From IMG/VR virus record IMGVR_UViG_3300021431_000096, positions 29,360 to 93,359 of that record: a DNA stretch of 64,000 bases; one strand, 5' to 3'. This DNA comes from a virus. Lineage: Duplodnaviria > Caudoviricetes. The translations under genes and the position numbers were made by a program. How positions within the stretch are numbered: position 1 is the first letter of the stretch; each line of letters starts with the position of its first letter. Shown here one piece after another: positions 4,357 through 14,115 of this stretch. Under the pieces are notes generated by a model. The model did not search any database, was not told the DNA's origin, and was given only the letters and a program-made list of their open reading frames with translations.

Positions 4357-5328
4357 ATGGCAATTACAAATCCAACCAAGTACGTTTCCGTACAAAGACT
4401 GAGCCGCTTCGAGGCTAAGCTCGCTCAGAAGTATCAGACACAGGCCATCACCGCCATCACTGGTCTGAATGCAGAAACCGTAGAGGCCGCTCTGGCTGAG
4501 TTGCTCGGCAAGATCAACGCGCTCCCCAGCGCCATCATCCCCAAGGGCTCCAAGGCTTTCGCAAGCCTCGCTCCCTCGACCGACCTGGCTGCTGCCAACC
4601 TCGGCTTCATGTGGAACATCACGGACGCCTTCACCACCACAGCCGACTTCGCCGAGGGCGCTGGCCACAGCATCCCCGCTGGAGCCAACGTGTATGTGGC
4701 CAACGTAGGCACCGCCGCTGAGCCCGTCTACAAGTACGACATCTTCGCCGGCATGTACGACCTCTCAGGCTACGCCCTGAAGAGCGAGATGTCTATCACC
4801 GACGGTGAGGGTGCCGACGCCGACAAGACCACTATCCAGCTGAAGAGCGGTCTGTCGAAGCAGGTGCTCATCGCCCACCAGGACATCAGCGGCAAGGCCG
4901 ACAAGGTGGCTTCTGCTACCAGCGGCAACCTCGCCGGACTGGACGGCAACGGCAACCTGACCGACTCTGGCATCGCAGCTACTGACGTGGCTACTATCGA
5001 CGCCGACGCCGTGGAGGGCAACATCGCCGAGTTCGACGCCAACGGCAACCCCGTGGACAGCGGTCACGCACTCTCTGAGTACAAGACCAAGCAGACGGCT
5101 GTGGCTGATGCTGACGCCACCACCAGCGGCAACGACACGACCTTCGTGGACAGCGTGACACAGGACACCAACGGCGAGATCTCCGTCCACAAGAAGACCG
5201 TTCCCAACGTGTCTGCCTCTACCTCTGGCGCAGGCGGCACCAACGGCCTGATGCTCGCCACCGACAAGGAGAAGCTCGACCTGCTGCTGGAGTGCTCCGA
5301 CGACGACATCGACAGCATCTTCGCGTAA
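4357..5328 (+). CDS. Head/tail fibre-like protein
   Basis: HQDISGKADK, GNLAGLDGNGNLTDSG repeats and GLMLATDKEKLD, motifs common in phage fibres; ends DDIDSIFA. Confidence 0.7.
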   Translation: MAITNPTKYVSVQRLSRFEAKLAQKYQTQAITAITGLNAETVEAALAELLGKINALPSAIIPKGSKAFASLAPSTDLAAANLGFMWNITDAFTTTADFAEGAGHSIPAGANVYVANVGTAAEPVYKYDIFAGMYDLSGYALKSEMSITDGEGADADKTTIQLKSGLSKQVLIAHQDISGKADKVASATSGNLAGLDGNGNLTDSGIAATDVATIDADAVEGNIAEFDANGNPVDSGHALSEYKTKQTAVADADATTSGNDTTFVDSVTQDTNGEISVHKKTVPNVSASTSGAGGTNGLMLATDKEKLDLLLECSDDDIDSIFA

Positions 5329-5340
5329 TCTCTCTATCCC

Positions 5341-5375
5341 AGGTCAGCAGGGTTCGACTCCCTGCTGGCTTGCCA
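5341..5375 (+). ncRNA. tRNA-like minihelix (acceptor stem + T-arm + GCCA)
   Basis: AGGTCAG-CAGGG-TTCGACT-CCCTG-CTGGCTT-G-CCA; no D or anticodon arm. Confidence 0.5.
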
Positions 5376-5398
5376 AACATTTTAAAACATCAAGAGAT

Positions 5399-5536
5399 AT
5401 GGCACTAACAAACGAAACAAAGTACGTGACCGTGCGACGGCTCAATCGGTTCCGTAACAAACTGAGGGCAGAACTGCCGAGTACGACCGTTGCATCCGAC
5501 GCCACCTGCGAGGCCATCGTCGACGAACTCGTCTGA
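5399..5536 (+). CDS. 45-aa motif-only adaptor peptide (not in ORF track)
   Basis: MALTNETKYVTVRRLNRFRNKLRAELPSTTVASDATCEAIVDELV*; N-half matches the N-terminus of 4357..5328, C-half matches the C-terminus of 1363..2880. Confidence 0.75.
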   Translation: MALTNETKYVTVRRLNRFRNKLRAELPSTTVASDATCEAIVDELV

Positions 5537-5574
5537 CGCCGTGACATTTGTATAACCAATAAAAAGAAAAGAAT

Positions 5575-6480
5575 ATGGCAGATGAATTAGAGAACAACGG
5601 CCAGCAGGTGCAGGGCACCAGTGGCCATGAGAGCGAGACCGTCAGCGTCGGCGGCCTGAAAGCCTCGCTGCAGAAACTGAAGACCGACCACATCGACACG
5701 AAGTACACGAAGCCGTCAGGCGGCATTCCGTCCACGGATATGACCTCGGCGGTGCAGTCGTCCCTTGGCAAGGCCGACGCCGCCAAGGCACTCCTCGACG
5801 ACATCGTGCCCGCACAGGCGTCGGATCAGAACCAGCTTGCCGACAAGAGCTTTGTCAACTCGTCGGTTTCGACGGCAACGGCCACCCATCGCGGCACGTT
5901 CAACCTCGTCAGCGACCTCTCGCTGACCGTTTCGGCCACGCAGTCGCAGATTGCCACCGCACTCGGCACCGCCATCCAGACGGCAGACAACAACGACTAC
6001 GCCTTCGTACAGGTGCCGACGGCCGACGACAATCCGACGGAGATTGCCCGCGTGGACCGCTACAAGCATAACGGCACGGCATGGGCGTTCGAGTACAGTC
6101 TGAACAACTCTGGCTACACCGCCGCGCAGTGGGCAGCCATCAACTCGGCCATCACCAGCGCGAAGGTGAGCGGATATGACTCGCACGTTGGCAACTCCGA
6201 TATTCACGTGACCACGCAGAACAAGACGGCGTGGAACGCCAAGTACGACAAGCCCAGTGGCGGCATACCAAAGACAGACCTTTCCAGCGGCGTGCAGTCA
6301 TCCCTGGATAAGGCCGACGCTGCCGCCCCGCAAAGCACCACCTACTCGAAGACCGAGGTCGACCAGAAGTTCGACGAGTTCGCTGGTCCGACCTACGATC
6401 CCGCCACGCGGGCCATCATCTTCCCCGCCACGGCGAAGGTGTCATACGACGCCGCCAACCGCGCCGTCGTCTTCGGATAA
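5575..6480 (+). CDS. Fibre-like virion protein
   Basis: Two KYxKPSGGIPxTDxxSxVQSSLxKAD repeats, YSKTEVD motif, C-terminal YDxAxRAxxF repeats. Confidence 0.65.
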   Translation: MADELENNGQQVQGTSGHESETVSVGGLKASLQKLKTDHIDTKYTKPSGGIPSTDMTSAVQSSLGKADAAKALLDDIVPAQASDQNQLADKSFVNSSVSTATATHRGTFNLVSDLSLTVSATQSQIATALGTAIQTADNNDYAFVQVPTADDNPTEIARVDRYKHNGTAWAFEYSLNNSGYTAAQWAAINSAITSAKVSGYDSHVGNSDIHVTTQNKTAWNAKYDKPSGGIPKTDLSSGVQSSLDKADAAAPQSTTYSKTEVDQKFDEFAGPTYDPATRAIIFPATAKVSYDAANRAVVFG

Positions 6481-6516: not shown

Positions 6517-7926
6517 ATGGCACAGGAATTTGACATTTTGAAAATCGGAGGCGTTCCCATCAACGCCTGCGACGTCGTGGCACGCCAGCGCATCGACGAG
6601 CTGGCAGCAGCCAGCGGCGTGACCTACTTCGGCCGCGTGTGGAACCTCCAGAACTCCACGCCCGTGGCCGACCACTACATCGGCAACCTCGCCTTCGGAC
6701 AGCAGCTGCCCGAATGGCTCGGACTGGGCTGCTACATCGTGAAGAACGACCACAGCCGTAAGAAGCTGATGGCCGACAACCATTATAAGTACGAGAACGG
6801 TGCTCCCGCCAAACTGGATGGTACAGAAGGCCATTACCAGTGGGGATGGGGCAAGAAGTTCTATATCGTGGTGAAACAGCAGGGCGACGAGCTGGCGCTG
6901 ATTATTGCCAAGGGCAAGATTCCCGGCGAGGTGAACTACACCATTCCCGTGGCCTCTGAGTCTGCGGCTGGATGGGCTACGATGGAACGCAGCACTGGTA
7001 AGCTGGTAAGCTACATCAATATGGGTGCCGACTACCGTGGTGGTAACAACGACAGCAGTCGTGACGGACAGTATAACACTATGCTCGGACGCCCTGCATC
7101 TTCTATGACTACCAACGCATTCCTGACTGCCGCCCGCCTGAATGGCGACGGATGGCTGGGTGCAAGTATGCGCTTTGACTGCGTGAAGGCCATACTCTTC
7201 TACGTCATCTTCGGTAACCTGAACGTACAGGCCGCCTATAATGCCAATAAGGACGCCAATGGACTGTATCAGGGCGGACTTGGTACTGGTCCTACCAATG
7301 CAGGCGGTTGGTGGGGAGCCAACTGGGACTATTATCCCGTGTTCCCACTGAGTGCAGGTATAGAGTTGGGCGACCGTTGTGGCGTGTTCAACTATGTAGT
7401 GAAGGACGGTGAGGACAATACGTTGCAGACCATGCAGGGTACCTGTTTCTTCGGATTGAAGAACGGCATGGGCGGTATCATGTGGAAGATGATGACCGAC
7501 GAGTTGCTGCAGTGTAATGAGGATAAGAGTCAGACGCACCTGATAGCCGAGAAGATTTGTAAGGTGGACGGCAATTACACCTACAGCATCGGCAACAGCG
7601 CTACGGGCTTTAAGGTTGGTGGTACCACACCTGCTTATGAGAGTGCTGCATGGAACAGTATCAGCCGCGTGCTCTTCAAGAATCTTGAGCTGCTGCCTAT
7701 CGGTGTCGGTCAGACCAATCGCTTCAGCGATGATTATTACAATCCTGCTATAACCTCCGGGTTCCGTCTTGTGCTCCGTTCCGGCTCTCTGGACCATGGT
7801 GGTCGGTGTGGCCTTTCGTTTGTCCTTGGTTACATTGGTGTCGGGAATGCCTATGCGTACGGCGGGTCGTCGCTCTGCGAAGTGACCGAGGAGTGGAGCG
7901 TGGACGGAGAGTACGTCGAGGTCTAA
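6517..7926 (+). CDS. DGR target protein, probable receptor-binding protein with C-terminal CLec-like variable region
   Basis: VR lies in the last ~57 codons (GFRLVLRSG...GSSLC); last gene of the fibre module. Confidence 0.85.
   Translation: MAQEFDILKIGGVPINACDVVARQRIDELAAASGVTYFGRVWNLQNSTPVADHYIGNLAFGQQLPEWLGLGCYIVKNDHSRKKLMADNHYKYENGAPAKLDGTEGHYQWGWGKKFYIVVKQQGDELALIIAKGKIPGEVNYTIPVASESAAGWATMERSTGKLVSYINMGADYRGGNNDSSRDGQYNTMLGRPASSMTTNAFLTAARLNGDGWLGASMRFDCVKAILFYVIFGNLNVQAAYNANKDANGLYQGGLGTGPTNAGGWWGANWDYYPVFPLSAGIELGDRCGVFNYVVKDGEDNTLQTMQGTCFFGLKNGMGGIMWKMMTDELLQCNEDKSQTHLIAEKICKVDGNYTYSIGNSATGFKVGGTTPAYESAAWNSISRVLFKNLELLPIGVGQTNRFSDDYYNPAITSGFRLVLRSGSLDHGGRCGLSFVLGYIGVGNAYAYGGSSLCEVTEEWSVDGEYVEV
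7755..7875 (+). repeat. DGR variable repeat (VR)
   Basis: 15 mismatches to TR over 121 bp, every one opposite an A in TR. Confidence 0.95.
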
Positions 7927-7983
7927 GGATTACGATGTGGTCAATGTGTTCAACAGGTGACAAAGGTTAACAAAAAGGGGGCA

Positions 7984-8013
7984 AGCACGCCCCGCCCCAA
8001 AGCGGGGCGTGCT
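7984..8013 (+). promoter_or_regulatory. GC-rich hairpin/cruciform downstream of VR
   Basis: AGCACGCCCCGC-cccaaa-GCGGGGCGTGCT, perfect 12-bp stem; DGR target-recognition hairpins lie downstream of VR. Confidence 0.65.
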
Positions 8014-8052
8014 CCCCTTCGCTCTAAAAAACATGGTAGCTCTCGTTAAAGA

Positions 8053-8173
8053 CTCCGGGTTCCGTCTTGTGATCCGTTCCGGCAATCTGAACAATGGTGG
8101 TCAGTGTGGCCTTTCGATTGTCAATGGTAACAATGGTGTCGGGAATGCCAATGCGAACAACGGGTCGTCGCTC
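8053..8173 (+). repeat. DGR template repeat (TR)
   Basis: 23 adenines, mostly in AAC/AAT codons; constant 298-bp offset from VR. Confidence 0.95.
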
Positions 8174-8328
8174 ATCTTTATTGGAATATTCAAAAATATA
8201 CATTGGACGACGAGAGTGCCACGCCTCATGGCGGAAAATAAACTGGGGGTGCAAGTGTTGGTAGGCTCACGCGGAAGGACCGTAACAGAGTGCGAAGACA
8301 GGAGCATCTAATGAATAAAGCAGAATAG

Positions 8329-9861
8329 ATGAAGACGATAAAACGACTATCGGACGACATAGCGACTGTCAATAATTTCATCGAAGCGCATGAGAACTAC
8401 ACAGAGACAAAGCCTTATAGGACTGATATCCGTGAGTTTGAAAGCAACTTCACTGCAAACATCAGAACACTTCTTAGAGCATATAACCTTGGCAACTGGG
8501 TGCCACCAGAATACGAAGAGCGTACTATCGTAGAACATAACAAGCTACGGAAACTTGGTGTTTATCCTGCGGCAGAGCACAATATAGAATGGGCAGCACT
8601 GAATTATCTGGAGAAACCGTTGACCGATACATACATCCGCAACTCTTGCGCCTGCGTCAGAGGACGAGGACAGAATGACTTTATTGATATCATATCCCGC
8701 GCCATGCGCAACAGTTATGATGACACACGCTACGGCGTGCAACTGGATGCGCACCACTACTTTCAACTGATAGATCACAATATCATAGAGTGTGTGCTTG
8801 AAAGGAAGATCAAGGACGAAAGGTTGATGCGGTTACTGCACAATATCCTGAGTTCTTTCATGAACGGATTGGTGCTCGGTACTAAACTCAGCCAGATAGA
8901 GGCGAACTTCCAACTGTCGCCCTTTGACCACGGAGCACAATCATTATGGGGTGTTCGCAACGATGTGGAGAAGATGTGTTACTGGCGCCGAAGATATGTT
9001 GACTGGTGCATAGCAACCGTGCGAACCAAGGAACAGGCCGAGGAGCTCGCCAAGGGCGTGCAGTACCTGAACGCGAAGTTCGACAGCCTTGTGGACAAGG
9101 GCGTGTTCTATGCCAGGTTTGCCGACAACATCATCATGCTCTCTGGAGACAAGGCATTCTTGCATATCGTCACCGAAATTGCCATTATGGTGCTGGCACG
9201 GGACTATCACTATCAAACTAACAAGTCGTGGAATGTCCGACCTGTTGAACCCGATGGCATAGACATCTGCGGTTATGTATTACATCATTATTATAGAAAA
9301 GTAAGAAAACGCATTAAACAAGATTTATGGAGAGAGGTCATACAGCTTCGCAAAAAAGGGAAATCGCCAGAGGAAATACGCCTGGCATGTGCCTCGCGTA
9401 TTGGGTGGCTAACGCATGGCGACTGTAGGAACCTTCTCAGGAAAATGAATGTCAATATGGAAGAACGGCTTGGCGATAAGATTAAGAAAAAGAGAATAAT
9501 GATTCCTTTTGAAGGTATGACGAAAGAACAGCGACGTTCTATCGAGGACTTTCTTTGTTATACTGACGAAGACGAAAATGATAAGATGATTCTCCTTTTG
9601 GAATATACTGTCGGCAAGTCGATATTTCCAGGAAAAGAAAACCGTGCTGCGTTAAGGTTCAAAACTTCAAACGGAATCATTCGTCATCCCGATGGTACCA
9701 CAGAGCATCAGTGGAGTGAAGAGGAACTTTACGCATGGACTGGTTCACAAATACTGATAGAACAGATGTTGCAGGAGTTCTCACCAGAAGATTTGCCTGC
9801 GCCGACGGCCATTCACGAAAACACGAACAAATACGGAAAGAAATATTATAAGTTCACTTAA
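8329..9861 (+). CDS. DGR reverse transcriptase with C-terminal extension
   Basis: SCACVRGRG, QLDAHHYF, LVLGTKLSQ, YARFADN, GIDICGY motifs. Confidence 0.92.
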   Translation: MKTIKRLSDDIATVNNFIEAHENYTETKPYRTDIREFESNFTANIRTLLRAYNLGNWVPPEYEERTIVEHNKLRKLGVYPAAEHNIEWAALNYLEKPLTDTYIRNSCACVRGRGQNDFIDIISRAMRNSYDDTRYGVQLDAHHYFQLIDHNIIECVLERKIKDERLMRLLHNILSSFMNGLVLGTKLSQIEANFQLSPFDHGAQSLWGVRNDVEKMCYWRRRYVDWCIATVRTKEQAEELAKGVQYLNAKFDSLVDKGVFYARFADNIIMLSGDKAFLHIVTEIAIMVLARDYHYQTNKSWNVRPVEPDGIDICGYVLHHYYRKVRKRIKQDLWREVIQLRKKGKSPEEIRLACASRIGWLTHGDCRNLLRKMNVNMEERLGDKIKKKRIMIPFEGMTKEQRRSIEDFLCYTDEDENDKMILLLEYTVGKSIFPGKENRAALRFKTSNGIIRHPDGTTEHQWSEEELYAWTGSQILIEQMLQEFSPEDLPAPTAIHENTNKYGKKYYKFT

Positions 9862-9888
9862 TATTCATCATTTTAAAATGTTTTGATT

Positions 9889-10542
9889 ATGAAAACAAGA
9901 AGTTATCAGTCAGGTTTGACTTACGAAAAGTATGATCGCGACCACATTGCAATCTACTTCAACGAGACAACAAAGGAAGTGCCTTCGGGTAATGATAGGG
10001 AATCGACACAGGTAGAGTATGAATACGATACTGTGCTTGTGGCTGCTGAGACTCCTTCAGTAGAGGCATTTGCAGCAGCCCTTGTGGCTAATGGCATAGC
10101 CTTGCTTGATGCACAGGCTATTGCTACGGGTATTATCTTTGCTTCAATCCAAAAGGGGCAGTTGGAGGGTGATGAGCTTGCTGCAGCCAAGGAGATGGTA
10201 CGAGCCAAGATTACTGCCTACGACTCGTCATCGGCAGTTAATGAGTTTACCTATCAGGGAACGCCGATGTGGCTTGACAAAGACACACGTGCAGGTTTGA
10301 TGCTGCGACTGAATGCCGAACAGGCTGGTGGTCACGAAAACACAACGTTATGGTATGGCACACAATCCTTCTCGTTGCCTGTAAGCAGTGCTATACAGAT
10401 GCTTACCGCATTGGAACTTTACGCATCGGCTTGCTTCGACATGACGGAAGAGCACAAAGCCGCTGTTGATGCCAAACACACGGTTAACACCGTATTGGCA
10501 TACGATTATACGCAAGGCTATCCCGAAAAGCTGGCTTTCTAA
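9889..10542 (+). CDS. Tail fibre assembly-like protein (DUF4376-like)
   Basis: KITAYDSSxAVNxF...MWLDKDTR...LELYA...YDYTQGYPEKL pattern typical of Bacteroidales phage genes after fibre/DGR loci. Confidence 0.6.
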   Translation: MKTRSYQSGLTYEKYDRDHIAIYFNETTKEVPSGNDRESTQVEYEYDTVLVAAETPSVEAFAAALVANGIALLDAQAIATGIIFASIQKGQLEGDELAAAKEMVRAKITAYDSSSAVNEFTYQGTPMWLDKDTRAGLMLRLNAEQAGGHENTTLWYGTQSFSLPVSSAIQMLTALELYASACFDMTEEHKAAVDAKHTVNTVLAYDYTQGYPEKLAF

Positions 10543-10577: not shown

Positions 10578-11081
10578 ATGAGCGTTTCGATAATGCTTTC
10601 TATCCTCCTGGTGGTGTCCTTTGTGGGCACCACCATTTGGAAAGAGAAAGAACTGCCAGATAGCATCAGCGCAATGGTGTGGGTGCTTCCCGAAGGCGGC
10701 TTGCGGTGGCTGTGGTCAATATGGCTCGTTGCCGTGTCCATCCTTACCTTTGCTCCTGCCATCGGCATCCTCGACGCAAGGGGTCTTGGTGTGTTCGGAT
10801 TTCTGCCTATGGTATGCCTCGGCTTTGTTGCAGTGTGGCCTCTCTTCGACCAGGAACACGTCAAATGGCACTACGTGATGGCAGTGGTCGGCGGCATCCT
10901 CTCGCAGGTCACGGTGGCTTTTATCAATCCGTGGTGGCTATCCGTCTGGCTCTTGATGGCTGTAGCGCTATGGAAGCCCATCAGAAGCAAGGCTGTGATG
11001 ATATCGGAGTGTCTATGCTATGTGGCGATGGTTGGCGCACAAACAAGCACAGCTCTTTTCGTCCACACGCAAAATCCATAG
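10578..11081 (+). CDS. Multi-pass membrane protein
   Basis: Five or six hydrophobic segments. Confidence 0.65.
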   Translation: MSVSIMLSILLVVSFVGTTIWKEKELPDSISAMVWVLPEGGLRWLWSIWLVAVSILTFAPAIGILDARGLGVFGFLPMVCLGFVAVWPLFDQEHVKWHYVMAVVGGILSQVTVAFINPWWLSVWLLMAVALWKPIRSKAVMISECLCYVAMVGAQTSTALFVHTQNP

Positions 11082-11297
11082 CAATAAATCTTTTTTTCAT
11101 TATGACTAACGGCGAAGAACAGAAATCACGGAGTTACTTTTACCGCTTCGAGGCCAACACGCGGATATCAAGCCCGACAAGTTCGGTGGCGCACAGGTGG
11201 CCACGCCCGACATGCTGACCGCCGATATGTTGACGTGGGGCATCAAGGCCGAGATAGACCGCAAGTTCTCCAAGGTTTTCGCTATGAACAAGCAGAC

Positions 11298-11434
11298 CGC
11301 GCGTCCAGGACGGCACCTCATCCGAAGGCGGTGATAATGGCGACAACGGCGGCTTCGCTAAATTCAGCGGCACGCCCTCTCCGGCAAAGCGCCACCGTCT
11401 GGATGAATGTTTACAATGGTCCCAGACGCGTTGG
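11298..11434 (-). ncRNA. Candidate rod-like small RNA
   Basis: Begins just after the minus-strand promoter 11440-11470; 11300-11309 pairs with 11421-11430 through two G-U pairs only on the minus strand; inner CATCC/GGATG and CGGTG/CACCG stems. Confidence 0.4.
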
Positions 11435-11439
11435 AACGG

Positions 11440-11470
11440 CAAAGGTAGGGAATGTTTTCGGAACGGCAAG
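11440..11470 (-). promoter_or_regulatory. Host-type promoter CTTG-N19-TACCTTTG
   Basis: Plus strand CAAAGGTA 11440-11447 and CAAG 11467-11470. Confidence 0.6.
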
Positions 11471-11641
11471 CGTTCGTTAGCATTATTTAAGGAAAAGCAC
11501 AAGGGGAGTCCCCGCCGTCCGAGATGGATGGCAGGGATGACTTTGTGGTGTTCTGGCAGCTACCTGACGACGACCGTCAGCTCCGATCCGTCCGTGAAGA
11601 TGATGTCCTGATTGTGATACAGAGGTGGTTGCCGTTATTTA

Positions 11642-11675
11642 GTCCCAAACGAAAAAAGCACATATTGTAAATTTG
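11642..11675 (+). promoter_or_regulatory. Phage-type promoter GTCCCA-N20-TAAATTTG
   Basis: Exact motif and spacing. Confidence 0.7.
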
Positions 11676-11744
11676 CTGATAGAACGCCGCCCAGATGCGG
11701 TTAACAGCGCCAGCCGCAGACAGCGGCTTACTCTCGCGAAGGGA

Positions 11745-11884
11745 AAAGAAAAAAGTTCAGGACTTGCGGGCGAACCTGCTACAATTCTAACGGACATGAA
11801 CCGTCTGTACCCGCAAGGAACCTGAACTAAAAGGTCTCCTTTCTGATACGACGGTTCAATATTTTATTCCGTAAGAATTGTAGC
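11745..11884 (-). ncRNA. Candidate structured RNA with interleaved A-B-A'-B' pairing
   Basis: 11754-11770 complementary to 11810-11828; 11778-11805 complementary to 11850-11884; minus-strand TAATTTTG box at 11889-11896 and U-tract at the 3' end. Confidence 0.5.
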
Positions 11885-11885
11885 G

Positions 11886-12200
11886 ATGCAAAATTATAAC
11901 AAAAATTACAATCGAGAGAATATCCATCACATCAGTGGGTACAATTTAGTGAAACTTAACGCTTATAAACTGAAATTAATGCAGGCTCTCGGCATCAGGG
12001 TGGAGGACGTTAAAAACCTTGCTCCTTACGAGGCTTATCACAACATGATGGGCATGAATATCGACCGAAAGCGCATGTATGCTTTCATCCGGCAGGAGTA
12101 CGGCATCAGCAGGACGAATATGCAGAATATAGCGAAGCGTTTTGAGCAGACGGTTGACAATGATGCCGGTGATTTCGGGGAGGAAATCGGAGACGGATAG
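11886..12200 (+). CDS. Small HTH (Mor-like) DNA-binding protein; true start may be GTG 11949 or ATG 11979
   Basis: C-terminal AFIRQEYGISRTNMQNIAKRF helix-turn-helix pattern. Confidence 0.5.
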   Translation: MQNYNKNYNRENIHHISGYNLVKLNAYKLKLMQALGIRVEDVKNLAPYEAYHNMMGMNIDRKRMYAFIRQEYGISRTNMQNIAKRFEQTVDNDAGDFGEEIGDG

Positions 12201-12455
12201 TTAAGGTTTGTCAATAGAGTGACGCGGGTTTTGGCTGACGGTAGCCAAAACAGCGGTTTTCGGGCGGTATGGCTGTGGCTGTATCGCTCGAAAGCCTTTT
12301 ATACAGGCGGTTTCTGCGTAGCCAAGAACGGTGGCTGCGCATTAACGCTTTTCTTTGGCAGGTGTGGCTTCTTTTTCCGAAATTTGCTGTCGGAAACGAG
12401 GAAACTCAAATCCACTACAATTCACTTTATTTATTAACACAAAAACTTTAAGACT

Positions 12456-13025
12456 ATGGCATTAGAGATGAATGATTTGATGATGCTCCGTGGGATGGAC
12501 TCCAAGGAAGGTCTGTCGCCCTATGAGCAGGTGAAGCTCGACCACATGACTGCAAAGAATCACACTGGCGGTGTGGCAGTAGCAGGACTGGTGACTGGCG
12601 TGGCTGGTGTTACCATCGCCGCAACGGCATGGCTGTTCGGTGGTATGTACTCCAATGCGAAAGCGAAGGAGGCCAAGGAGACGGCTATTGCCGCCAAGGA
12701 GATTGCAACCCTGCAGAACGGCGCTACACAGCGTCAGCTCGATCAGTTGACCAACCTGTTTGCTGCTGAGCGTCAGGAGCGCATCGCTGGCGACGTGACG
12801 CTGAACCAGACCATCACGGACACCGTGAGCGGTCAGCAGGCCAGCACCCTTACTGCCCAGCAGCAGGCAGAACTCATGGCCTCGCAAGCTACGCAGCAGG
12901 TGATGACGAAGACCTATGAGGACTTCGTGACTGGTCGCGCTTCGCTGAACCCGACTCCCGTCAGCCTGTACTCGGCTCCACAGCCTTGTGCTTGTCCTGC
13001 CAGCGGTTGCGGTTGCGGCGCGTAA
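12456..13025 (+). CDS. Hypothetical: Gly/Ala hydrophobic segment, coiled coil, Cys-rich tail (PCACPASGCGCGA)
   Basis: ORF with A-rich leader and strong codon bias. Confidence 0.7.
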   Translation: MALEMNDLMMLRGMDSKEGLSPYEQVKLDHMTAKNHTGGVAVAGLVTGVAGVTIAATAWLFGGMYSNAKAKEAKETAIAAKEIATLQNGATQRQLDQLTNLFAAERQERIAGDVTLNQTITDTVSGQQASTLTAQQQAELMASQATQQVMTKTYEDFVTGRASLNPTPVSLYSAPQPCACPASGCGCGA

Positions 13026-13109
13026 GCGATTTGAGGGGCTGTGACTGTCCCGTATGCTGCGGCACTGCCGCAGCCTCTCATTTCCAAATTCAATTCACGG
13101 CAATATGAT

Positions 13110-13475
13110 ATGTTTGGATATGGTAAACGAAAACGACGTATGCAGATGGTACAACAGGGATTAAGGGCGACGAGCAAGAGCAGTCTGAAGCTGCAATGCC
13201 TCTTTTGTGCAAAGGGCGACCTGAAGGAGGCAAAGGAACTCTACGACTTCTTTGCGAGCGACATGCCCGACCTTCCGGACTACGACCCTGTGCCGCCGAC
13301 TTGGCAGCAGAACACGGCACAGACCATCAACGGCATCATGGACTGGGTGAAAGAGAACCAGGGGGCGTTGGCACAGGCTTACGACTTCATAGCAGGCATC
13401 GTCAGAAAGCGGGGCATACCGCCAACGGCTGCGCCCGAGCCGCCAGCCGCACCGCTGCCACCCATCAATCAGTAA
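13110..13475 (+). CDS. Hypothetical protein of the Cys-rich cassette
   Basis: ATG 13110 follows AATTCACGGCA leader shared with the next gene. Confidence 0.6.
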   Translation: MFGYGKRKRRMQMVQQGLRATSKSSLKLQCLFCAKGDLKEAKELYDFFASDMPDLPDYDPVPPTWQQNTAQTINGIMDWVKENQGALAQAYDFIAGIVRKRGIPPTAAPEPPAAPLPPINQ

Positions 13476-13493
13476 CAACTAATTCACGGCATT

Positions 13494-13715
13494 ATGAATG
13501 AGAAGAAAGAAATCAAGGTGTTCCCCATCACGTTCGAGGTGTATGCCTACGATGCGCAGGAGGTGGAGGAACTGCGCAGTGCGATAGTGGACTTTATCGC
13601 CACCAACGCCCAGCGGAAAGTGCCTATACTGGCTGGCAAGGCCGCACAGGGCATCAGGGCATGGGATAAGAACCCGTTCGTCAGGAACAGGATTATCCAA
13701 CACTTCCAAGTTTAG
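13494..13715 (+). CDS. Hypothetical protein of the Cys-rich cassette
   Basis: ORF in operon context. Confidence 0.6.
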   Translation: MNEKKEIKVFPITFEVYAYDAQEVEELRSAIVDFIATNAQRKVPILAGKAAQGIRAWDKNPFVRNRIIQHFQV

Positions 13716-13762
13716 AAAGAATCAGAAAGTTTTGCAAGAATTATCAAAAAATAGCAAGGATT

Positions 13763-14098
13763 ATGGATCAGACAAATCAGAATCAGAATCAGCAGAGCGG
13801 GCAGTTCAAGTGTCCAGGCAACTGTCTGCAGTGCCTGCCCGCACAGCGTCAGTATTGTGCCTCGCAGCACGCCTACTCGAACATGAAGGTGCTCGACAAA
13901 ATCATGGAGACGCTACTCGGTATGAAGAACCAGATGGACGCGATGCAAGGCACGGTCGCGGAGCTCTCGGCGAAGATCGAGGCCATCCAGAACGGCGAGG
14001 CTGCCGTGTTCGACCCCAATGGCGAGGGCGAGCTCTTCCCGAAGGAGTTTGCCGTCGCGGAGCCCGCAACCGACGCACCTGCAGAGGCGGCGAAATAA
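13763..14098 (+). CDS. Hypothetical: CPGNCLQC...C motif plus coiled coil
   Basis: Four Cys followed by a heptad pattern. Confidence 0.65.
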   Translation: MDQTNQNQNQQSGQFKCPGNCLQCLPAQRQYCASQHAYSNMKVLDKIMETLLGMKNQMDAMQGTVAELSAKIEAIQNGEAAVFDPNGEGELFPKEFAVAEPATDAPAEAAK

Positions 14099-14115
14099 GC
14101 CCCTGAAAATGCCGA

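Follow-up and report, generated by a model that had tools for sequence, protein, structure and literature searches.

What stands in for Avd when a DGR has no room for it, and can such an element work with an RT whose catalytic motif is altered? Both questions are raised by a complete DGR in a gut Bacteroidales phage, located at positions 6517-10542 of the window (the whole 64,000-nt stretch of DNA that was analysed, part of a 93-kb virus record). An Avd gene occurs in more than 70% of DGRs without being obligatory, and gut phages, which are the densest in DGRs, often do without it; to our knowledge, all that is known of the DGR mechanism comes from one Avd-dependent system. The cassette comprises the following elements:

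6517-7926, plus strand: DGR target gene, an ORF for a tail protein of 469 aa (phrog_5302 tail protein, E 2e-44) with the variable repeat close to its C-terminus
7755-7875, plus strand: variable repeat (VR), a 121-nt repeat inside the target ORF, 88% identical to the template repeat
7977-8018, plus strand: strong GC-rich stem-loop between the target stop and the template repeat, with 12-bp arms at 7984-7995 and 8002-8013, read directly from the sequence
8053-8173, plus strand: template repeat (TR), found by comparison with the VR, with 23 adenines and many Asn codons
8174-8328, plus strand: TR-RT spacer, a candidate structured part of the DGR RNA, marked by sequence blocks conserved in 12 loci
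8329-9861, plus strand: RT ORF, whose 510-aa translation ends in YYKFT
9883-10542, plus strand: acidic ORF of 219 aa, pI 4.6, with an N-terminal clade module (own profile) and a C-terminal DUF4376 (PF14301)

The VR sits inside the tail-protein ORF, at the 3' end of this protein-coding target, and differs from the TR solely at TR adenines. All 15 mismatches in the 121-nt pair fall on adenines of the TR and none on its 98 non-A positions; since the TR is 19% A, an all-A pattern would arise by chance with a probability of ~0.19^15, or ~1e-11. The TR has a single VR partner in the whole 93-kb record. As regards an IMH-type GC-rich VR end with a hairpin peculiar to the VR, the homology stops at GGGTCGTCGCTC and a small hairpin with VR-specific bases is predicted, its folding being non-significant. 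A megablast search of GenBank phages with the cassette returned no match. Among related loci, the N-terminal part of the target is present in 102 of 114, and the median gaps are 286 nt from VR to TR and 201 nt from TR to RT. Adenine specificity is also evident in these relatives, where 315 of 332 VR/TR mismatches accompanying xADN RTs and 435 of 462 accompanying xMDN RTs are at TR adenines; overall, VR/TR pairs that are ~95% A-specific were found in 70 of the 76 loci with xDN or xDG RTs. Moreover, loci with a common cassette layout (L026-L035) carry from 0 to 13 VR changes each. We regard the element as an active Bacteroidales-phage DGR, with adenine-specific editing.

Comparison of the RT with known structures revealed a close relationship to the Bordetella phage enzyme, bRT. 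The RT family profile had bRT (8ub7_A) as its best PDB sequence match (E 4.7e-43), and the AF2 model had the same entry as its best structural match (Foldseek E 1e-16, TM 0.89 on target). The RT is detected by PHROGs, NCBIfam and PDB profiles and went undetected by Pfam RVT_1. Its motif 4 reads LGTKLSQ (aa 183-189), in agreement with the (I/L/V)GxxxSQ pattern of DGR RTs. Within the RT ORF, we distinguished four parts:

8329-9456, plus strand: RT core, aa 1-376, consisting of N-terminal extension, fingers, palm and thumb (phrog_1423 E 2e-57; 8ub7_A)
8926-9093, plus strand: clade-specific helical insert of ~50 aa between motifs 4 and 5, aa ~200-255, seen as a profile gap against bRT
9118-9129, plus strand: motif C, F-A-D-N, aa 264-267, with N267 aligned with bRT D216
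9457-9861, plus strand: C-terminal tail, aa 377-510, a linker helix followed by a predicted OB-fold (AF2 model; SSB-type matches)

The catalytic motif had been read from the sequence as FADN rather than YxDD, and this holds: FADN starts at aa 264 and places N267 at the position of bRT D216, so that the canonical motif with both aspartates is lacking and DGR membership follows from the other features. The second aspartate of YxDD is commonly regarded as essential. Furthermore, an earlier survey found both aspartates 100% conserved among DGR RTs (PMC3521204), and one might therefore suspect that FADN marks an RT without catalytic activity, accompanied by a fossil VR/TR pattern. However, the change is a property of the whole lineage: among 155 non-redundant relatives, motif C is FADN in 93, FMDN in 51, FVDN in 2, FVDG in 4 and xDD in 5, so that 150 of 155 carry xDN or xDG, and yet all other motifs are retained, with database homologues 35-88% identical to the window RT. 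Neither the Asp of motif A nor the first Asp of motif C varies in any of the 155. Together with the adenine specificity of the related VR/TR pairs, the variation of VRs among loci of the same layout and the lack of any non-A change over 121 nt in the window itself, this distribution largely refutes a dead enzyme, to which we assign a very small probability. Since lineage-wide xDN or xDG motifs coincide with ~95% A-specific VR/TR pairs, these enzymes evidently work, and a DGR RT is apparently able to function when Asn or Gly occupies the site of the second Asp. In bRT, the Mg2+ that was observed has D138 and D215 as its ligands (10.1101/2023.10.23.563531); in the window RT, only the Asp of motif A and the first Asp of motif C would be left as carboxylate metal ligands.

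A second peculiarity lies in the palm. The sequence-only reading had noted an insert of roughly 60 aa between GTKLSQ and FADN; the insert is indeed present, while its size is better put at ~50 aa, because 74 residues separate Q189 from F264 as against 25 in canonical YMDD DGR RTs. This SQ-to-motif C spacing is 73-76 aa in 155/155 relatives, compared with 25 in YMDD outgroups. Profile positions 200-254 have no bRT counterpart, the model places three helices at 213-257, and the conserved residues of the insert include the aromatic and basic Y218, W219, R222, Y223 and R232. Both the insert and the tail occur in all 155 non-redundant relatives; judged by these distributions, Asn267, the insert and the tail are lineage traits.

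We then turn to Avd itself. The gaps of 126 nt between the target stop (7926) and the TR (8053) and of 155 nt between the TR and the RT start (8329) contain, as their sole ORF, the TR in frame, which bears out the earlier remark that no room is left for avd. An avd elsewhere in the genome was sought with PF05635, TIGR02436 and HRDC profiles, and no Avd or HRDC gene was detectable at E<=1 in the whole 93-kb record. Likewise, 34 of 35 related virus records gave no PF05635 match, and the remaining one gave a sub-threshold match ~30 kb away from its DGR. Nor is the tail an Avd homologue, since it is beta-rich with a pI of 5.5, as opposed to the basic helical bundle of ~110-130 aa recognised by PF05635 or TIGR02436; no Pfam, NCBIfam or PHROG family matched it. 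Going by these profile searches, the phage lineage does not use Avd.

The frame runs on past the thumb, as first noticed, from MEERLG at aa 377 to the terminal YYKFT, adding 134 aa that begin with a short linker helix carrying a local basic patch (DKIKKKR); overall, the tail is mildly acidic (pI 5.5). Its AF2 model (pLDDT 90.3, pTM 0.81) displays the order b1-b2-b3-helix-b4-b5 of a five-stranded OB barrel, with strands at 45-53, 63-76 and 82-95, a helix at 98-106, and strands at 115-123 and 129-133. The OB-fold, at first a guess, is thus predicted by the model and agrees with the SSB-type structural matches. In Foldseek searches of the PDB, the top matches were all SSBs, at E >=0.02 and TM ~0.3, while BFVD yielded phage ssDNA-binding proteins at E 2e-4 along with two phage RTs, and the nearest ESM Atlas clusters were partly phi29 SSB. 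VIA-align placed the OB domain of RuvBL2 first (Z 5.8) and a PhiC31 integrase-RDF fusion second (Z 4.8), followed mostly by SSB, PriB, RPA or Teb1 OB folds, the overall range of Z 3.3-5.8 lying below the value of 8 under which, by the tool's own caution, a match possibly reflects just a common arrangement. Sequence profiles (Pfam, NCBIfam, PHROG, PDB-sequence) gave no match to an SSB or OB family. The modelled tail resembles SSB proteins weakly but consistently. Across aa 363-510 (thumb end, linker and tail), 39 positions are conserved in >=80% of the 155 relatives, and b3-b5 carry the conserved aromatic and lysine residues Y468, F484, K501, K504, K505 and K508.

The tail is found solely at the C-terminus of DGR RTs and is fused in every intact locus. 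As the sequence-only reading anticipated, it co-occurs with DGR RTs only, in 114/114 fetched loci and in the matches from the representative library, the one exception (P0118) being a 2129-aa protein matched in four stretches at 29% identity (E 2e-7) that looks like a Lys/Glu-rich compositional match. A tblastn search located the tail in one unannotated faecal fragment only (MT835875.1). The same reading had compared the tail to a small stand-alone ORF found downstream of RTs, which did not survive closer inspection: the stand-alone matches are fragments or frameshifts, and the downstream ORF is unrelated to the tail. Short matches begin at the conserved Met of the junction or come from contigs <1.3 kb. 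In L002, the tail ORF has been separated by a 4-nt deletion, as comparison with the fused L075 shows; L012 and L113 contain frameshifts, and L112 is a relic.

Between the TR and the RT, the spacer retains conserved blocks over 12 loci whose RTs are only ~40-50% identical. Among them are a 4-bp hairpin, whose window version reads CGCC UCAU GGCG, with a pair that covaries from A-U to G-C, and a variable hairpin between conserved GGTAG and CAGG. Single-sequence folding of the spacer was non-significant (z 0.08), and the consensus from RNAalifold on the 12-locus comparison was poor owing to misalignment of the variable hairpins. The spacer is likely a structured part of the DGR RNA, whereas the stem-loop at 7977-8018 may be either a terminator or an upstream element of that RNA.

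These observations can be combined into a working model, in which a transcript covering the TR and the structured downstream spacer would be copied by the RT, TR adenines would be miscopied during cDNA synthesis, and the cDNA would replace the VR at the 3' end of the tail-protein gene. Here, the OB module would most likely be a built-in binder of single-stranded nucleic acid that keeps the nascent cDNA, or a portion of the spacer RNA, attached to the enzyme, thereby taking on in cis some or all of the scaffolding done in trans by the Avd pentamer in the Bordetella phage. In the latter, Avd is positioned ~40 Å from the active site and binds a stem-loop immediately 3' of the TR as well as the N-terminal extension of the RT, and bRT has no additional nucleic-acid-binding subdomain (10.1101/2023.10.23.563531). 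We infer nucleic-acid binding by the tail and its substitution for Avd from the modelled fold and its setting, and replacement of Avd by the tail is plausible on that model. An active Avd-less DGR with a bRT-like RT, three fixed peculiarities and an OB module partly standing in for Avd is the account we favour, with about an even chance of being right as a whole.

The closest structural neighbours of the tail, SSB, PriB and phage SSBs among them, genuinely bind ssDNA, and the OB tail could instead act after cDNA synthesis as a tethered SSB that coats or protects the single-stranded cDNA and delivers it to the VR during retrohoming, with the scaffolding of Avd covered by the RNA, the palm insert and the N-terminal extension; the conserved Y218, W219, R222, Y223 and R232 of the insert could assume the RNA contacts. 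Given that the data do not separate RNA from DNA binding and that function is not established by fold similarity alone, we consider this unlikely, if still the strongest competitor of the partial substitute for Avd. A different role is hinted at by the best VIA match, the OB-like domain II of RuvBL2, which makes largely protein contacts, and by the net acidic charge of the tail: it might be a protein-docking module for host SSB, replisome parts or the virion, without nucleic-acid binding. The dominance of ssDNA binders among the neighbours and the residues Y468, F484, K501, K504, K505 and K508 in b3-b5, which fit nucleic-acid contact, leave docking only a slim chance.

Finally, the accessory factor might be sought outside the RT. 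An acidic ORF of 124-151 aa (pI 4.2-5.9, most 4.2-5.4) begins -4 to +40 nt from the RT stop in 111 of 114 loci, and a profile built from these 111 loci matched only ORF 9883-10542 among 726 six-frame window ORFs (E 6e-6); the true start of this ORF may be the ATG at 9889, and PF14301 scored 27.6 bits on it against a cut-off of 25. Small acidic proteins of 160-169 aa and pI 4.7 have been described as CH1, whose genes Wu et al. (PMC5758913) encountered in avd-less Bacteroides DGRs and nowhere else; the window ORF, directly after the RT, has 219 aa and pI 4.6. The Hankyphage ORF, with 161 aa, pI 4.7, DUF4376 and an overlap with the RT stop, fits the published description (PMC5758913). The acidic ORF could accordingly be the true trans-acting accessory factor, a counterpart of CH1, with a different or minor role for the tail. 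However, an acidic protein would be a poor RNA binder, and DUF4376, present in the Hankyphage version as well as in that of the window, is classed by PHROGs with tail fibre proteins, so that the ORF may be a fibre assembly factor linked to the target and not to the RT; since the target is co-conserved, these two links are inseparable. We hold the acidic ORF to be improbable as the true accessory factor, slightly less so than docking. Returning to the OB tail, a fuller version of our account, in which the RT has a D...D-N active site and a tethered SSB-like OB domain, possibly with a translationally coupled acidic protein, replaces the Avd pentamer, is tentative and clearly less probable than partial substitution.

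If it is true, the retrohoming machinery of this Bacteroidales-phage lineage would differ from the Bordetella paradigm, with the OB domain organising the RNA/cDNA complex and a two-carboxylate active site altering metal use and perhaps adenine infidelity. Asn or Gly in YxDD contradicts the published invariance of both aspartates in DGR RTs (PMC3521204) and bears on RT metal-ion catalysis and fidelity in general. With at least 155 members and clear evidence of ongoing activity, the clade is a concrete system for tests, and as it combines the lack of Avd with a built-in candidate nucleic-acid-binding domain, it can reveal what Avd is needed for. Directed-evolution tools based on DGRs could likewise profit from a mutagenic RT that forms a single polypeptide and needs no Avd beside it. 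Avd-less DGRs and C-terminal RT extensions were known before, whereas the loss of the second Asp and the OB-like fold appear undescribed, literature searches having found no description of FADN, an altered YxDD or an OB-fold in DGRs.

Among known proteins, SSB and PriB share with the tail the predicted b1-b2-b3-helix-b4-b5 order and long hairpins and were its commonest neighbours in four structural searches; in contrast, sequence similarity is undetectable and scores are low, and the tail is a monomeric, polymerase-fused domain whereas those proteins are free oligomers. Hankyphage (Bacteroides phage p00) also carries a Bacteroidales phage DGR with annotated target, RT and DUF4376 ORF and no gene between target and RT. 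Its RT extends ~110 aa past the thumb and is followed by the small acidic DUF4376 ORF, and the extreme C-termini of the two RTs look similar (F-x-T-x-S ... P-x-x-T-x-I ... Y-x-F-T end), although the Hankyphage RT is only 26% identical to the window RT, keeps the canonical YCDD and is without the palm insert. Profile comparisons lent no significant support to homology of the tail with either the RT extension or the downstream ORF of Hankyphage (hhalign E 0.03 and 0.12 for the extension; hmmsearch non-significant), and a search to enrich the Hankyphage profile yielded only proteins >=90% identical.

Wu et al. (2017; NAR 46:11, PMC5758913) had already described DGRs without avd (Architecture A), an avd-less Bacteroides lineage (Lineage 3), extensions of up to ~150 aa at the C-terminus of ~20% of DGR RTs and, beside avd-less DGRs, small acidic CH1 genes; in those extensions they recognised neither motif nor fold, and the loss of the second catalytic Asp and the palm insert go unmentioned. 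The BPP-1 DGR (mtd-avd-TR-brt) shares with the window the order of target-VR, TR and RT, mutagenesis confined to adenines, the placement of the VR at the 3' end of a tail or receptor-binding gene and a motif 4 of the IGxxxSQ type; its RT, known from bRT-Avd-RNA structures (8ub7 and related entries), can be aligned with the window RT from end to end. In contrast to BPP-1, the window DGR is without Avd, has N267 where bRT has D216 and carries a ~50-aa insert between motifs 4 and 5; and while bRT stops after the thumb, the window RT continues into an OB-like tail of 134 aa and is followed by a small acidic ORF.

By every functional criterion, the element in this window is a diversity-generating retroelement (DGR), and it lacks two features often listed for the family, namely the full pair of catalytic aspartates and the accessory variability determinant, Avd. 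The window covers the final 64 kb of an IMG/VR virus record of 93,359 bp, estimated to be 95% complete, and the cassette comprises the following features:

6517-7926, the DGR target gene, encoding a 469-aa tail protein (phrog_5302, E 2e-44)
7755-7875, the variable repeat (VR), a 121-nt repeat in the 3' part of the target ORF
8053-8173, the template repeat (TR), a second copy, 88% identical to the VR
8329-9861, the reverse transcriptase (RT) gene, 510 aa
9883-10542, an acidic ORF, 219 aa, pI 4.6, with DUF4376 at its C-terminus (27.6 bits; cut-off 25)

Alignment of the two repeats placed 15 of 15 mismatches at TR adenines and left every other position identical, an adenine-only pattern far beyond chance for a TR of 19% A content. 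Since the mismatches are confined to TR A positions, 7755-7875 and 8053-8173 are therefore assigned as VR and TR, and the TR has a single VR partner across the whole 93-kb record. The gaps from the target stop to the TR (126 nt) and from the TR to the RT (155 nt) contain no ORF other than the in-frame TR, confirming the sequence-only reading that target, TR, and RT leave no room for avd between them; across the related loci described below, the median gaps are 286 nt (VR to TR) and 201 nt (TR to RT). In the gap from target stop to TR, a strong stem-loop at 7977-8018 is built on a perfect GC-rich inverted repeat of 12 bp (7984-7995/8002-8013) with a GGGG/CCCC extension; it may serve as a target-gene terminator or belong to the DGR RNA as an upstream element. 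A small predicted hairpin at 7866-7887, whose folding is without statistical support, is reminiscent of the hairpin on the VR side of the Bordetella DGR; its 5' arm lies in the GC-rich end common to VR and TR, and its 3' arm is VR-specific.

The 510-aa RT is the protein described from the sequence, with LGTKLSQ at aa 183, FADN at 264, MEERLG at 377 and a C-terminal YYKFT. Pfam RVT_1 did not match this protein, and phrog_1423, the PHROGs RT family, matched aa 1-400 (E 2e-57). A profile of 50 relatives matched the Bordetella phage BPP-1 DGR RT (bRT, PDB chain 8ub7_A) with E 4.7e-43, and the same chain gave the best superposition on the AlphaFold2 model (pLDDT 89.6; Foldseek E 1e-16, TM 0.89, bRT-normalised). 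The profile-bRT alignment fell into two blocks (positions 2-199 and 255-373), and therefore about 50 residues between motifs 4 and 5 are without a bRT counterpart. The insert noticed from the sequence is thus present, at about 50 rather than roughly 60 residues, with 74 residues between Q189 and F264 versus 25 in ordinary YMDD DGR RTs; it is modeled as three helices (213-257). In the profile alignment RFADN lies over RYMDD of bRT, so that D140, D266, and N267 correspond to bRT D138, D215, and D216. In the bRT structure, Mg2+ was observed 2.2-2.3 Å from D138 and D215 (10.1101/2023.10.23.563531).

A search of 5.8 billion proteins returned 92 close relatives of the RT (35-88% identity), nearly all of 500-580 aa and with the C-terminal tail (aa 377-510) covered. 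With the tail as bait, we fetched 114 related loci, 80 from the 197 positive IMG/VR contigs and 34 from GTDB genomes, all 34 of which are Bacteroidales (Muribaculaceae, Alistipes, Segatella copri, Bacteroidaceae, Parabacteroides, and Lepagella). Motif C, read from its alignment column in 155 non-redundant full-length sequences, was FADN in 93, FMDN in 51, FVDN in two, FVDG in four, and xDD in five, while the motif-A Asp and the first motif-C Asp were invariant. The insert (spacing 73-76 residues) and the tail were found in 155/155 relatives. Judged from these alignments, the altered motif C, the insert, and the tail characterize the lineage rather than reflecting damage. In the tree, the xDD members lie near the base and a 19-member FMDN group is sister to all others, so that either the second Asp was lost twice or the root is misplaced. 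The motif 4 signature, SQ in the window (aa 188-189), is AQ in 38 and ST in 19 of the 155 relatives.

Activity was assessed in related loci whose RT is intact and whose upstream sequence is long enough. VR/TR pairs of 90 nt or more were found in 28 of 31 loci of the xADN motif-C class and 42 of 45 of the xMDN class, with 315/332 and 435/462 mismatches, respectively, at TR adenines. Loci L026-L035, with a common cassette layout, displayed 0 to 13 VR changes. The adenine-specific mismatches of the related loci, the VR differences within L026-L035, and the perfect identity of the non-A positions in the window argue for ongoing mutagenic retrohoming by RTs without the second Asp. Outside the window, an RFMDN subclade carries a poly-G tract in its palm insert, about 849 nt before the RT stop (loci L022, L024, L060, L061, L066, L068, L116, and L117), and G7 is usually in frame. 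Variants from G6 to G9 break the RT frame in at least six viral contigs, and the same spot is out of frame in two Segatella copri genomes, including one from an isolate; this length variation could be a phase-variable DGR on/off switch or a homopolymer assembly error.

Absence of Avd extended beyond the cassette. An avd elsewhere in the genome was sought with PF05635, TIGR02436, and HRDC, none of which matched at E<=1 in the whole 93-kb record, while control genomes responded. PF05635 likewise had no match in 34 of 35 related virus records; the lone PF05635-like match, in locus L084 (G015:C1:45077-45379, minus strand), scored 24.9 bits, below the cut-off, and lies ~30 kb from the DGR.

The tail proved linked to DGR RTs as anticipated: in 114/114 loci it is read in frame with the RT, or the frame is visibly disrupted. 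Searching 1.84 billion representatives with aa 377-510 (phmmer) produced 43 matches. Leaving aside the library protein P0118, which looks like a compositional match rich in Lys and Glu, these lie at the extreme C-terminus of the protein; the long ones are RTs, a few with canonical xDD. The resemblance to a stand-alone ORF downstream of RTs, proposed from the sequence, did not hold: the apparent stand-alone tail proteins are of three kinds, namely pieces on tiny contigs, gene calls from a conserved junction Met, and a deletion in locus L002. For L002, comparison of L002:470-482 with L075:5949-6012, a fused relative, revealed RT and tail split by a 4-nt deletion in a AAATAAAT repeat, the tail ORF beginning at the junction Met, which is found in 100/155 relatives. 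Across aa 363-510 (thumb end, linker, and tail), 39 positions are conserved across 80% or more of the 155 sequences. Overall, the tail has a mildly acidic pI of 5.5. It had no match among Pfam, NCBIfam, PHROG, and PDB sequence profiles, and clearly is no homologue of Avd.

A tail model from a 13-sequence alignment (pLDDT 90.3, pTM 0.81) predicts a short linker helix bearing a local basic patch, then the succession strand-strand-strand-helix-strand-strand. This is the OB-fold order, so the suspected OB fold found support in strand order, but the structural match scores were weak. The top PDB Foldseek matches were all SSBs (E 0.02 or worse, TM about 0.3). VIA-align over 48,161 chains ranked the RuvBL2 OB domain first (Z 5.8), then the PhiC31 integrase-RDF fusion (Z 4.8), with mostly SSB, PriB, RPA, Teb1, and editosome OB folds among the remaining rows (Z 3.3-4.5). 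Phage ssDNA-binding proteins (E 2e-4 at best) and two phage RT proteins came up in BFVD, and the closest clusters in the ESM Atlas consist of small viral proteins, some with the phi29 SSB family. The searches thus returned the same kind of match at weak scores, and the tail is probably an SSB-like OB fold, a prediction that carries no direct word on function.

In the Bordetella phage, Avd sits ~40 Å from the active site and acts by binding a stem-loop immediately downstream of the TR together with the N-terminal extension of the RT, which makes a built-in RNA-holding module a reasonable substitute. The tail would tether single-stranded spacer RNA, or cDNA as it is made, to the polymerase, giving in cis part of what Avd contributes in trans. 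Among loci with RTs of only about 40-50% identity, the 155-nt TR-RT spacer retains sequence blocks, including a small hairpin in which one pair covaries and a variable hairpin whose flanks are conserved; this is consistent with the structured spacer RNA enveloping bRT in the Bordetella RNP. We consider the proposed substitution of Avd by the tail an even call. The SSB-like tail may instead act after synthesis, in cDNA delivery, or be a protein-docking module.

The accessory role may alternatively fall to the downstream acidic protein. In 111/114 loci, an ORF of 124-151 aa (pI 4.2-5.9, most 4.2-5.4) starts -4 to +40 nt from the RT stop, and a profile of these ORFs matches just one of 726 six-frame window ORFs, that at 9883-10542 (E 6e-6, first 86 residues), which is longer than its relatives because of the DUF4376 domain. 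The protein may be a DGR accessory factor, or, because PHROGs places its DUF4376 part among tail fibre proteins, a factor for tail-fibre assembly that is linked to the target gene. The target N-terminal part is conserved in 102/114 loci, and better (median 51% identity) than the RT (38%), whereas for the flanking genes (4357-6480 and 10578-14100) the 114 loci yielded no detectable relatives. Target, TR, RT, and acidic ORF therefore behave as a single module, which seems to travel, or to be maintained, as a unit across phage backbones, so this conservation does not separate the two readings of the acidic protein.

DGRs without Avd, an avd-less Bacteroides lineage, and unexplained C-terminal extensions in ~20% of DGR RTs are already known (PMC5758913). 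In the searchable literature, we found no description of the Asn variant of motif C, of an evidently active clade in which nearly all members lack the second Asp, or of the extension's probable fold, the 50-aa palm insert, or the tightly coupled acidic ORF. The Bacteroides Hankyphage p00 RT is 26% identical to the window RT and differs in its canonical YCDD. Like the window, Hankyphage has ~110 residues beyond the RT thumb and a 161-aa DUF4376 ORF (pI 4.7) overlapping the RT stop, an ORF that agrees with the CH1 accessory genes as described in the literature.
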